In this document: positions 1-8,721 of the stretch, piece by piece
Layout of the letters: every line of letters begins with the position of its first letter
Numbering within the stretch: position 1 is the stretch's first letter
DNA from: Candidatus Omnitrophota bacterium
GTDB lineage: Bacteria > Omnitrophota > Gorgyraeia > Zapsychrales > Fredricksoniimonadaceae
NCBI GenBank assembly: GCA_044225175.1
Contig: JBGAJA010000004.1
Span: 17,631-81,630, forward strand
Direction: 5' to 3'
Length of the DNA: 64,000 nucleotides
Position numbers and translations under genes: made by a program
Notes under the pieces: generated by a model
What the model saw: the letters and a program-made list of their open reading frames with translations, nothing else
Told to the model about the DNA's origin: nothing
The model's database searches: none

Positions 1-607
1 CAGATTGATTAGATACCTGAATCTTTGTTCCCAACTTAATTTGCTGGGTTTTATTACTTTTGGCAGTATCTGCACTATCTGGACTACTTGAGGACTCATT
101 GCTGGTTAAATCATTGAAATCCTGAACTACAGGAGGAAGAACAACTCTAAAAATCCGTGTTTCTATCGCAAGAACAATGATATCCCCATCTTTAATCTTA
201 AAATCGTACCCAAGAGGATAAAGGATTATATTCAACGCTTTTTCAATAGTGACATCAATTACGTCTACTGATACCTTCTTAAGTTCAACCCCGGGGCCAA
301 AGATCAAATGATAGCCCGTCTTTTCAATGAGAGGCTTCAACACCTCATCTAAAGATGATTCCTGGATCTTAAAGGAAATCTTGGATAAGAATTCTTTTGG
401 TAAATCTTCTTTCTTAATCTGAAGAATCTTAGGCATAGCCTTCATAGGTTCTTCTTGGAGTTGAGCAGCCTCAGAGACTTCCTTTTGTTTATTCCACTCT
501 TGAGCAATAATATGAATCTTTTCTGAATCATTCATCACGGCTTGCGCTTTTGGGCAAAGCAGTAATGTTAGAAACATCCATGTCCATATAAGAAATTTTG
601 TTTTCAT
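1..607 (-). CDS. Secretin N-domain protein (partial; the 3' end runs beyond the window start). It has a signal peptide and a secretin_N/STN-like domain followed by an IETRIFRV motif
   Basis: My own reverse-strand translation from ATG at 607 is open through position 1 (more than 200 codons). The product begins MKTKFLIWTWMFLTLLLCPKAQAV..ISFKIQESSLDEVLKPLIEKTGYHLIFGPGVELKKVSVDVIDVTIEKALNIILYPLGYDFKIKDGDIIVLAIETRIFRV. This has the same pattern as the N-domain of the PilQ at 16437-17930 (ISMDFRDVALVDVLKIFSKQSGKNFI...KVFPLKYASV). The ORF is absent from the supplied track because it is truncated. Its start overlaps ORF 528-953 by 80 nt; alternative in-frame ATGs lie at 577 and 535. Confidence 0.5.
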   Translation of the reverse strand, partial: MKTKFLIWTWMFLTLLLCPKAQAVMNDSEKIHIIAQEWNKQKEVSEAAQLQEEPMKAMPKILQIKKEDLPKEFLSKISFKIQESSLDEVLKPLIEKTGYHLIFGPGVELKKVSVDVIDVTIEKALNIILYPLGYDFKIKDGDIIVLAIETRIFRVVLPPVVQDFNDLTSNESSSSPDSADTAKSNKTQQIKLGTKIQVSNQS

Positions 608-953
608 CTTTTTTATTCTCCTGTGTTTGTATCGGGTATGCTCTTTGAATACTCCATTGACCTGGTTCAATAATAACAAGCTCATTATGCTCAGGAATCA
701 TAACTCCATTGGTCAAATGGGCTGGAATTCTGACCTCCTGAACAATTGGGGATGTCCAATGATAATAAGGGAATTTACCCCCTTGAAATTGCGCTGCAAC
801 GTCTCTGATGTTCTCCTTTACCCCCTGCCGATAGCCTCGCTCATATAGATTCTTCTGCGATCGATCAGAAAGATAACTACAACCACTAAGAAGAATTAAA
901 AAAATACTTGTTATAACGAATCTATTTAAGCCCATACGGATGCTCCCTAGCAC
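528..953 (-). CDS. Predicted lipoprotein of unknown function, associated with the T4SS cluster
   Basis: The 141-aa product has an N-terminal signal peptide with a lipobox (LLSGC). It overlaps the traC 3' end by 32 nt, which suggests translational coupling. Confidence 0.4.
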   Translation of the reverse strand: MLGSIRMGLNRFVITSIFLILLSGCSYLSDRSQKNLYERGYRQGVKENIRDVAAQFQGGKFPYYHWTSPIVQEVRIPAHLTNGVMIPEHNELVIIEPGQWSIQRAYPIQTQENKKDENKISYMDMDVSNITALPKSASRDE

Positions 954-7593: not shown

Positions 7594-7605
7594 ACATTCT
7601 CCTTT

Positions 7606-8721
7606 TTAAAAACGGTTATTGATGCTTTGAAAACACTTATGAATTCCAATTAAGCTCAATAGCGGCATTAAACATAATAAAAATGCTGCCATGAAACTAT
7701 AGTATGGGTATTCCCAAAACCAATTGGGCTCATTTGAAAATTGGGCTTGCATATAAGCCATTATCAATGACCCATGATGCGCCATGGCTGCTGTCAGAAC
7801 CCACGATTTAATCCAAATAAAAGCTTCTGCGTACCTTAGAAATATATTGAATCGACGAAAAATAATCAGGGCAAGCATCAATACAGGAAATGAAGCATAC
7901 AAACAAAAATTGGCCCAACCTAAAATATATGGAAAGAAATTATAAATTGCACAGGAAAGAGGCCAGATGAAAGAAGATTGGACTTGATGCATCTGGCCGT
8001 GGATGATGGATAAAACGATGTTATTCTGGACTACGTCTGATGCAGATCCCATTTGTTTTAAGAAATCTTGAACCTTAACCCAAGGCGACCCCCTCATTGT
8101 TAAAAGACTGTTCTTAAATGCTTCTTTGCCTTCAAAGACATGCGCATCGTTCTTGTCTATTAATAGAGAAGGCGTGTATTGAGCATAAATAAAATCCTCA
8201 ACATCACCTTGCAACTCAGTATTACTAATTGGAGCGTATAAATATTGATTAGCTTCCAATGAAAGCTTTTGTAAACCAAAAGGATTCCTTAAAAATTTCT
8301 TACTATCAGACAAGGATAGATCGATAATATTAATAGCATCAGCAATTATTCCATCTACTCCTTGAGCCATGAATGATAATACAACAGGAACTGTATGGAG
8401 TGATGTTTGGGAATTTTTGAGTGTCTTAGCGTTAATACTCACCTCCCCCATTTGTTCCATTTTACTTTTGTATTCAATAGGTTCTTGCCGCTTTGGAAAT
8501 ATTAAAAGAAGAATGCCACATATAGAGATGAAAATAAAAATGAGAAAAGGCTGATAACTTCCCTTCTTAGTCATTTCCCAGATACTCCAAAAGAATCCTA
8601 TGCTAAAAGCAACCAGACCAAGATGAGTATTAGAGAAAAATGCTTCCGTTAAAGCCTGAGAAACATTAAGCCCCCACCATGACAATGCGGAATCTACTGG
8701 AGTTAAGCCTAAAACTTCCAT
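7606..8721 (-). CDS. Polytopic membrane protein, possibly VirB6/TrbL/TraG_N-like
   Basis: Two N-terminal TM helices, a soluble loop of about 170 aa, then at least three C-terminal TM helices. This topology is typical of VirB6. It is the first gene of the tra cluster. Confidence 0.35.
   Translation of the reverse strand: MEVLGLTPVDSALSWWGLNVSQALTEAFFSNTHLGLVAFSIGFFWSIWEMTKKGSYQPFLIFIFISICGILLLIFPKRQEPIEYKSKMEQMGEVSINAKTLKNSQTSLHTVPVVLSFMAQGVDGIIADAINIIDLSLSDSKKFLRNPFGLQKLSLEANQYLYAPISNTELQGDVEDFIYAQYTPSLLIDKNDAHVFEGKEAFKNSLLTMRGSPWVKVQDFLKQMGSASDVVQNNIVLSIIHGQMHQVQSSFIWPLSCAIYNFFPYILGWANFCLYASFPVLMLALIIFRRFNIFLRYAEAFIWIKSWVLTAAMAHHGSLIMAYMQAQFSNEPNWFWEYPYYSFMAAFLLCLMPLLSLIGIHKCFQSINNRF

Follow-up and report, generated by a model that had tools for sequence, protein, structure and literature searches.

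Why should genes of the conjugation type run into the gene of a secretin in an Omnitrophota genome, and does such a cluster belong to a mobile element or to its host? The question was raised by positions 1-8721 of a 64,000-nucleotide stretch of DNA (hereafter the window; positions 17,631 to 81,630 of contig JBGAJA010000004.1, GenBank assembly GCA_044225175.1) from Candidatus Omnitrophota bacterium. A preliminary description, made from the sequence letters, had recognized there homologues of the transfer (tra) genes of the F plasmid, which encode a type IV secretion system (T4SS), and had considered two interpretations: the mating-pair-formation (MPF) part of an integrative conjugative element (ICE), or a domesticated chromosomal F-like T4SS. 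Comparison with homologous loci showed that the second fits better and led us to a fuller reading, to which we give a probability of about 0.6: that the array belongs to a chromosomal, vertically inherited T4SS of the F lineage, characteristic of Candidatus Omnitrophota, to which a secretin-containing module resembling type II secretion systems (T2SS) and type IV pili (T4P) has been coupled for contact with target cells.

An F-like gene array and its spread

The array consists of 12 consecutive frames, all on the minus strand, that make up an F-like T4SS gene set with an inserted PIN pair and the start of a secretin gene. In order, these encode a TraG_N-like protein, a pilin, TraL, TraE, TraK, TraB, a protein of the PIN fold, a 58-aa open reading frame (ORF), TraV, TraC, a second TraV-like lipoprotein (hereafter TraV2) and the secretin. 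All 11 complete frames were intact, and the truncated secretin frame was open as far as it could be read. Families were assigned by profile searches with Pfam and NCBIfam, and weak calls in the window were backed by scanning orthologues from related loci, which are cited here by our own numbers (L). An F-clade VirB4 ATPase was found together with TraL, TraE, TraK, TraB and TraV in F order, the features by which MPF_F systems are recognized, and the co-directional arrangement behind a VirB6-like leading gene was as the preliminary description had it. As judged from these family assignments, 1-8721 is a T4SS gene set of the F lineage (MPF_F-like).

A scan of one genome per species, with the window proteins mapped onto all of them, found about 50 Omnitrophota species-representative loci with the same array. 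The order TraG_N-like protein, pilin, TraL, TraE, TraK, TraB, TraV, TraC was kept wherever contigs reached far enough, and the orthologues of the array proteins in relatives were 35-75% identical. TraC gave 123 homologues at E <= 1e-10; for those of 37-72% identity (more than 100), all source names shown were Candidatus Omnitrophota, and the complete genome of Ca. Velamenicoccus archaeovorus was among the sources. The best plasmid TraC matches were only 22-29% identical. Proteins of relatives already bear the NCBI labels 'TraC family' and 'TraU family'.

TraC itself (922..3546, minus strand) is an F-type VirB4 ATPase with a frame of 874 codons; the database copy P0001 is 100% identical over its 843 aa, which probably correspond to a start at 3453. 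Its best NCBIfam match was TIGR02746, the F-type TraC model (E 4.5e-114, 382 bits), ahead of the generic VirB4 model (207 bits) and the ICE-type TIGR03744 (167 bits), and in Pfam it matched P-loop_TraG (139.4 bits) and, above the cut-off, TraC_F_IV (87.3 bits). The 382 bits fall below the equivalog cut-off of 567, which makes it a divergent member of the F-type clade. Walker A (GASGAGKS) and the IDEAW Walker B were invariant across 30 TraC homologues. A GspE-family ATPase of Tad, T2SS or T4P type was also considered and was ruled out, since Pfam and NCBIfam both returned VirB4/TraC; the early call of a VirB4 ATPase with the IDEAW motif held, and none of the Tra assignments was lost.

Four of the remaining proteins scored above the Pfam gathering score: TraL (VirB3-like; 6983..7366, minus strand; 34.0 bits; TIGR02762, E 5e-5), which likely starts at the ATG at 7300; TraE (with a VirB8-like role; 6415..7032, minus strand; 37.5 bits; TIGR02761, E 1e-10); TraB (VirB10-like; 4610..5761, minus strand; TrbI, 76.8 bits; F-type PRK13729, E 8e-23); and the lipoprotein TraV (with a VirB7-like role; 3416..3880, minus strand; 28.9 bits). 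The VirB9-like TraK (5727..6452, minus strand) matched TraK_N at E 2.5e-3; among 20 orthologues, TraK_N was found in six, TraK_C in three and CagX/VirB9 in four, and the position of the gene was kept in 33 loci. The leading gene (7606..8721, minus strand) encodes a polytopic membrane protein of 371 aa that resembles TraG_N/VirB6 (TraG_N, E 1.5e-3). TraG_N matches were obtained for 11 of 20 orthologues (best E 7e-16; 53.4 bits for that of V. archaeovorus), and a gene of this kind heads the array in 28 loci. With lengths of only 371-460 aa, these proteins have the N-terminal domain supported by the profiles and no large C-terminal mating-stabilization domain. The pilin (96 aa; 7303..7593, minus strand) matched Pfam TrbC at E 9e-5, and 18 of 18 orthologues matched TrbC/VirB2. 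The F-type propilin model for TraA, NF041281, gave E 0.04 on the window pilin. What had been announced as a TraA-like pilin is therefore a pilin by its profile matches, VirB2-like and not demonstrably the TraA of F.

The retained core thus amounts to eight proteins, a minimal VirB2/3/4/6/7/8/9/10-equivalent set with one copy of each part. TraG_N/VirB6-like protein, TraL and TraE are its inner-membrane channel and stator; TraK, TraB and the lipoprotein TraV are its outer-membrane core; the VirB4 protein TraC is its motor, and the pilin is VirB2-like. Upstream of the first gene lies a putative operon promoter (8832..8859, minus strand; TTGACA-16-TATATT), the best sigma-70-like match of the region, with 11 of 12 consensus positions; promoter-like sites were not enriched in the region overall.

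A TraV paralogue and the nested secretin module

TraV2 (528..953, minus strand) is a protein of 141 aa with the lipobox LLSGC whose gene overlaps the traC stop by 32 nt. Comparison of the TraV2 and TraV families by profile-profile alignment with hhalign gave a probability of 97.3% (E 2.5e-11, 97 columns), and the two have in common a C-terminal P-x-V-x-x-V-x-I-P-A-H ... W motif. TraV2 was found in nearly every Omnitrophota locus, in most of them starting inside the end of traC (offsets -3 to -55 nt), and was followed in nearly every one by a full-length secretin. In eight loci the TraV2 motif and the secretin form a single reading frame by in-frame fusion. In L010 and in the outgroup L056, TraV2 follows traC without a secretin in the available downstream sequence, which suggests that TraV2 is an older part of the T4SS to which the secretin was attached later. 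An hhalign comparison of TraK with the secretin family was negative.

Of the secretin gene, the window holds the 5' part (1..607, minus strand; 202 codons), with a signal peptide and, at E 7.5e-7, an STN domain, while the rest of the gene lies past the edge of the window; a lipoprotein followed by a secretin-N-domain gene had been read correctly in the preliminary description. Full-length orthologues have Secretin_N_2 and Secretin domains and are matched by MshL, PilN and GspD models alike, the best in NCBIfam being MshL (223 bits) and the second the type IVB PilN model TIGR02520 (165 bits, cut-off 288). Beyond the secretin, relatives encode a GspL/PilM-like protein of about 400 aa, two small proteins, a GspE/PilB ATPase with an MshEN N-terminus, a GspF/PilC platform protein and two or three prepilins, so that what had been singled out as an unusual companion of an F-like system belongs, in these genomes, to a whole T2SS/T4P-like module. 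Its ATPase and platform were matched best by GspE/PilB and GspF models and its short prepilins by GspG or GspH, all below curated cut-offs. The small proteins could be assigned to no family, although they gave weak T2SSB, T2SSC and PilP-like hints, and no PilO2/PilP family match was found among the relatives' module proteins. A GspL/PilM fold is predicted for the 400-aa protein (model from seven sequences; confidence score, pLDDT, 74), the family profile of which had no match among PDB sequences. When the 400-, 165- and 194-aa families were compared by hhalign with the PilMN, PilO and 158-aa proteins of another pilus cluster in the window, described below, results were negative except that the 194-aa family weakly resembled the 158-aa protein (probability 69%). 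For the genome of the window, at least three of these proteins are accounted for: TraV2, the secretin and the GspL-like protein P0274, on record from a contig of 214,223 bp, the same length as that of the contig with P0001; the rest of the module is known from relatives.

In L081, TraC is followed by the secretin, by proteins of 398, 94, 164 and 224 aa, by T2SSE, T2SSF and pilins, and then by TraU, proteins of 195 and 216 aa and TraH, after which unrelated genes begin. TraU comes after the prepilin genes in 12 further loci (L006, L008, L009, L013, L015, L023, L026, L028, L037, L041, L042 and L043), in many of which TraH-like genes come next. Scores for the Omnitrophota proteins were 138.7 bits for TraU (E 3.6e-40), 35.2 bits for a TraF-like protein of the thioredoxin fold and 25.8 bits for a TraH-like protein. 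In many species, the tra operon thus encloses the secretin module, with traC on one side of it and the traU, traF-like and traH-like genes on the other. L010, which has no secretin module, shows the F-like order TraC, TraV2, 204-aa protein, TraU, 191-aa protein, TraF, TraH. In the L031 clade, TraC is followed by TraV2, the secretin, the GspL-like protein, a 157-aa protein and a TraH-like protein, with no gene for GspE or GspF nearby. Divergence of the module followed that of TraC (Mantel r 0.97 for the secretin, 0.95 for the GspL-like protein and 0.97 for the GspE-type ATPase, compared with 0.97 for TraB), which indicates that both gene sets have been inherited as one unit.

These arrangements bear on whether the locus might hold two independent machines, a reduced F-like T4SS and a complete T2SS/T4P-like system that would secrete proteins or make pili by itself and in which the TraV-like lipoprotein would be the secretin's pilotin. 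The predicted GspL/PilM fold and the GspE/PilB and GspF matches, albeit below curated cut-offs, would suit a self-contained filament machine, as would T4SS loci that do without the secretin module (L079 and L010) and a locus, L082, where traU and a traH-like gene accompany a pilin with a Collar domain and no TraC gene was called within 10 kb. Two separate machines would not be expected to lie one within the other, between traC and traU/traH, in species after species, nor to share a lipoprotein that is a TraV paralogue, apparently older than the secretin, and is fused to it in eight species. Nor would they be expected to diverge in step, the module following TraC as tightly as TraB does, or to leave a secretin and a GspL-like gene inside the tra operon with no GspE/GspF nearby, as in the L031 clade. 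Independence of the two is therefore possible but doubtful, and a module coupled to the T4SS accounts better for the data.

Irregular loci were also noted in this part of the operon. In two divergent ones, L044 (15363-16112) and L045 (15415-16089), the gene after the secretin and its partner encodes a ComF-like phosphoribosyltransferase. It was the L044 protein that matched in Pfam, and the one of L045, alike in place and length, is assumed to correspond to it. In competent bacteria, ComF has a connection with DNA uptake. On the short contig of L047 (1-6614), TraC, TraV2, the secretin and a fused GspL-like protein are followed by pilin, TraL, TraE, TraK and TraB again, which could mean that a second tra operon lies in tandem, that the molecule is circular and permuted, or that the assembly is at fault.

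Residence in the chromosome, reduction and insertions

The ICE interpretation had placed the integrase, relaxase, coupling protein and traU/W/N/F/H/G beyond the window start. F-type tra genes are indeed typical of conjugative elements, toxin-antitoxin pairs such as the PIN pair may represent are common on mobile elements, several metagenome-assembled genomes (MAGs) have more than one TraC contig, and the operon of the Velamenicoccus clade includes a TraD-like coupling protein and a weak Replic_Relax match. What relatives carry beyond traC, however, is the secretin module and then the lipopolysaccharide genes kdtA and lpxK, which mark the far end in L002 and L078. The upstream flank is likewise conserved: L079, whose TraC is 70% identical, has the window's prepilin gene, one TPR gene and a second TPR gene on the opposite strand, arranged as in the window, and L002 (TraC 67% identical) has the prepilin and one TPR gene in common with it. 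At 36.5% GC and with a mid-range tetranucleotide distance for the window, 1-8721 showed no compositional break, and the compositional check that had been put forward for an integrated element turned out negative. The window gave neither a tRNA gene nor an Rfam match. A tblastn search of it with the coupling protein of V. archaeovorus found no such protein, nor was one seen in the flanks of relatives, and no relaxase was seen among the annotated genes of the window or in those flanks, in accordance with the preliminary description. No integrase was seen among the annotated neighbours, a statement that comes from annotation and a partial scan of the window ORFs, not from a systematic search.

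A search for repeats gave no convincing element boundaries. An exact 16-nt direct repeat, GGATAAGAATTCTTTT, at 383-398 and 8798-8813, brackets almost the whole array; chance alone would give, as we estimate, about 0.06 repeats of this kind in 12 kb. One of the two copies falls within the coding sequence of the secretin, which is intact, and this makes an attachment site unlikely. Together with the distance of plasmid TraC and the single phylum from which all named close homologues come, these data leave the ICE interpretation very improbable. The array represents a chromosomal system resident in the phylum and no recent integration, and annotation of the cluster as an ICE should be avoided.

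The region next to the array, which the preliminary description had counted as core housekeeping, contains a second pilus cluster, of the type IVa pilus (T4aP) kind, at 8952-20501. Its order is a TPR gene on the plus strand, a prepilin (10970-11422), a second TPR gene, PilC, PilB with MshEN, PilQ (16437-17930), a 158-aa protein, PilO and a fused PilM-PilN (18957-20501). Genes for type IV filaments thus border the array on either side. The possibility that the array's secretin is an ordinary T4aP PilQ was ruled out, as this separate, complete cluster has a PilQ of its own and the two secretins are about 25% identical. Towards the other end of the window, a minus-strand ORF of 1,319 aa (59921-63880) had no Pfam match at E <= 1e-3.

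Within the phylum, the clade of the window appears to have a reduced version of the system. No TraU, TraF or TraH was found in the window by tblastn with the Omnitrophota proteins, as the preliminary description had noted, or, in the closest relatives, in the 10 kb around traC, and a TraU profile search of limited sensitivity gave no match on a 214,223-bp contig. After traC, L079 has nothing related to tra; L078 has TraV2 and the secretin and then kdtA; L002 has the full secretin module and then kdtA. With no coupling protein, relaxase or traU/F/H near the cluster in the window or in relatives of its clade, DNA self-transfer is unlikely.

Losses of this kind, the variable gene content after traC among close relatives and foreign genes at the traB-traV junction would also fit a decaying remnant that, having lost traU/F/H and the coupling protein, is non-functional or makes an adhesive pilus only. 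Decay is hard to reconcile with 11 complete frames that are intact, a secretin frame that is open and orthologues that are still 35-75% identical in relatives, or with the retention of precisely the eight proteins of the minimal set. The TraU search, moreover, was of limited sensitivity, and in L082 traU and a traH-like gene occupy a locus of their own. We therefore consider a remnant quite unlikely, and prefer to see in the window's clade a reduced form of the resident system. The genes at L082 (8494-12896) encode a protein of 162 aa, a Collar-domain protein of 333 aa, TraU, a thioredoxin-like protein, a protein of 106 aa and a TraH-like protein; xerC/D-like, topA and dprA genes are their neighbours, and the 10 kb covered on either side gave no call of TraC. 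The far half is thus separable from the rest of the system, and traU/traH may lie elsewhere in the genome of the window too.

Coupling-protein genes were found in the Velamenicoccus clade only, between the TraG_N-like gene and the pilin (L010-L023; 1857-5135 in L020, CP019384). There, an 88-aa ORF is accompanied by genes for a protein of 254 aa that matches Replic_Relax weakly (24.2 bits, below the cut-off) and for a TraD-like protein of 779 aa (SXT_TraD-like, 93.6 bits). This version of the system could move DNA or another nucleic acid.

The PIN gene (4137..4604, minus strand; 155 aa) and the 58-aa ORF (3977..4153, minus strand), which overlaps its stop by 17 nt, lie between traB and traV, a place that had rightly been called unusual: the pair occurs in the window only, and at other loci traB leads directly into traV. 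The 155-aa protein had no match in Pfam, NCBIfam or PDB sequences, either as a single sequence or as a profile, and belongs to a family of 2,697 representatives. It is assigned to the PIN fold (VapC-like) from its predicted structure: the AlphaFold2 model (pLDDT 94.8) had VapC toxins and PcrIIC1 as its top Foldseek matches (E ~1e-4, template-modelling score 0.56-0.67). D9, E48 and D97 were invariant in 53 homologues, and the fourth acidic position is occupied by Asn116, part of an SWNF motif with little or no variation. With a GC content of 31%, the gene is the lowest of the cluster. The fold, the three acidic residues and a small, adjacent, overlapping ORF recall VapBC; in contrast to VapBC, the small ORF lies downstream, not upstream, the fourth acidic residue is Asn and no curated PIN model matches. 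The 58-aa ORF matched no family, antitoxin families included, and its position allows a guess that it is the antitoxin partner. We read the pair as a lineage-specific accessory insertion of toxin-antitoxin-like character, not as a part of the machine.

Insertions were seen at other loci as well. At the traB-traV junction of L002 (6676-9532) there are a family 2 glycosyltransferase (GT2), a radical S-adenosylmethionine (SAM)/SPASM enzyme, a MazE-like antitoxin and a canonical PIN gene, the last unrelated by BLAST to that of the window. Together, the two cases suggest that this junction attracts small nuclease or toxin-antitoxin cassettes. V. archaeovorus (L020, 6130-6804) has an NYN (PIN-like) gene between traL and traE, and PIN-superfamily genes recur in the tra operon across species. 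In L001 (2982-9177), a 6.5-kb block encoding DUF1634, a TauE exporter, an outer-membrane efflux protein and an AcrB-type pump separates traC from the TraV2-secretin pair, which shows that the traC-TraV2 junction can be broken.

Known relatives and a possible role in cell contact

With the F plasmid, the Omnitrophota system has in common the families and order pilin, TraL, TraE, TraK, TraB, TraV and TraC, a TraC matched best by the F-type model, the presence of TraU, TraF-like and TraH-like proteins in many species, and the lack of VirB11. It differs from F in the distance of its TraC from plasmid proteins and its score below the curated equivalog cut-off, in a VirB2/TrbC-like pilin and in a TraG_N-like gene that leads the operon, where that of F ends it, and is devoid of the large C-terminal domain. 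The F assembly proteins TraW, TraN and TrbC were not recognized in any Omnitrophota locus, and F has neither the second TraV paralogue nor the nested secretin module. Finally, the Omnitrophota system is chromosomal and lineage-wide and, in the clade of the window, has no coupling protein, relaxase or traU/F/H nearby.

A conjugation-type T4SS encoded together with a secretin-based type IV pilus is found in the IncI1 plasmids R64 and ColIb-P9 and in PAPI-1, SPI-7 and ICEclc. In those elements it is an accessory 'thin' pilus of type IVb (pilL-pilV), and their pilL-N-O-P-Q-R-S order resembles that of the lipoprotein, secretin, two or three assembly proteins, ATPase, platform and pilins in Omnitrophota. 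Further points of likeness are the Secretin_N_2 domain of the secretin, its second-best NCBIfam match to the type IVB PilN, and a largest pilin with a possible adhesin (Collar) domain, weak in L020 (E 0.009) and seen also in the 333-aa protein of L082. By contrast, the T4SS of those elements is of the MPF_I or MPF_G type and their pilus is encoded in an operon of its own, carried by a mobile element, whereas the Omnitrophota module is chromosomal, sits inside the tra operon and has a lipoprotein that is a TraV paralogue, a protein of predicted GspL/PilM fold and an MshEN ATPase. The Omnitrophota system may accordingly be regarded as a functional analogue of the IncI/PAPI-1 family, not as a member of it.

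Chromosomal F-type tra genes in organisms that live in contact with hosts are also known from the gonococcal genetic island of Neisseria gonorrhoeae, a DNA-secretion system, and from the Rickettsia and Protochlamydia tra clusters, none of which serves the self-transfer of a plasmid. These differ in being recognizable islands that have kept traD, traI and traW/U/N/F/H/G, and they are not known to have a nested secretin module; the comparison draws on what is generally known of these clusters and on PMC4207684. To T2SS and the mannose-sensitive haemagglutinin (MSHA) pilus, the module is linked by a secretin closest to MshL, the predicted GspL/PilM fold, GspE/PilB- and GspF-like proteins and GspG/GspH prepilins; it differs from them in scores below the cut-offs, in the lack of a prepilin peptidase in the module and in its position inside a T4SS operon.

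Omnitrophota are abundant, uncultured and ultra-small bacteria, and V. archaeovorus attaches to and kills archaea and bacteria. In such cells, TraC would power the assembly of a conjugative-type pilus and of a channel across both membranes, and the nested module would build a type IV filament through the secretin pore. The TraV-like domain may serve to pilot the secretin or to dock it to the outer-membrane core of the T4SS. By analogy with the thin pilus of IncI plasmids and PAPI-1, the filament would make contact with a target cell, and the T4SS would then mediate contact-dependent exchange with the host or prey cells on which Omnitrophota live.

Several points weigh against this reading. Physical coupling of secretin and T4SS is deduced from gene fusion, gene order and co-divergence, and GspL-fold, GspE and GspF proteins are standard in self-sufficient type IV filament machines, so that the two machines could work side by side, as neighbours under common regulation. 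The lack of TraV2 and secretin in L079 and of ATPase and pilins in L078 implies that the module is dispensable in evolution. The coupling protein and the weak Replic_Relax match of the Velamenicoccus operon make DNA transfer within the phylum possible. MAGs CAYOMI01, JADFWS01 and PCRK01 each carry two to four TraC contigs, which could be paralogous or mobile copies or reflect mixed bins. Lastly, the operon promoter is a putative one, identified by its match to the consensus. Groups of loci that come from single MAGs are L012, L014, L018 and L029; L027 and L051; and L021 and L062.

In published surveys of Omnitrophota genomes, the emphasis is on pili of the type IV and Tad kinds, on giant surface proteins and on loci that resemble T2SS; a different T2SS/Tad-like locus beside giant genes has been described by West-Roberts et al. 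(bioRxiv 10.1101/2023.11.21.568195). A full-text literature search, the coverage of which excluded Kizina et al. 2022 on the V. archaeovorus genome, returned no description of an Omnitrophota tra system. Judged from sequence comparison, new elements in the present work are the homology of TraV2 to TraV, the TraV2-secretin fusion and the secretin module nested in an F-like tra operon.

A conserved chromosomal T4SS is a candidate apparatus for contact-dependent transfer between Omnitrophota and their hosts, and its candidacy is strengthened by the nested secretin/pilus module and the TraV-secretin fusion. A still more specific proposal, which we advance as tentative and on balance unlikely, is a composite machine in which the TraV-like domain docks secretin and filament on the T4SS core, the filament finds and holds the host or prey and the T4SS delivers macromolecules, with the Velamenicoccus version as a route of predator nucleic acid into prey. 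Intron RNA of the predator has been observed in dead archaeal prey, in a report that mentions no secretion system (PMC13153191); if the proposal were true, such RNA would be an example of what the Velamenicoccus system carries. In its gene content, the Omnitrophota locus would represent a natural hybrid of two great families of envelope-spanning filament machines and, if the fusion reflects physical docking, a new design for the outer-membrane complexes of T4SSs.

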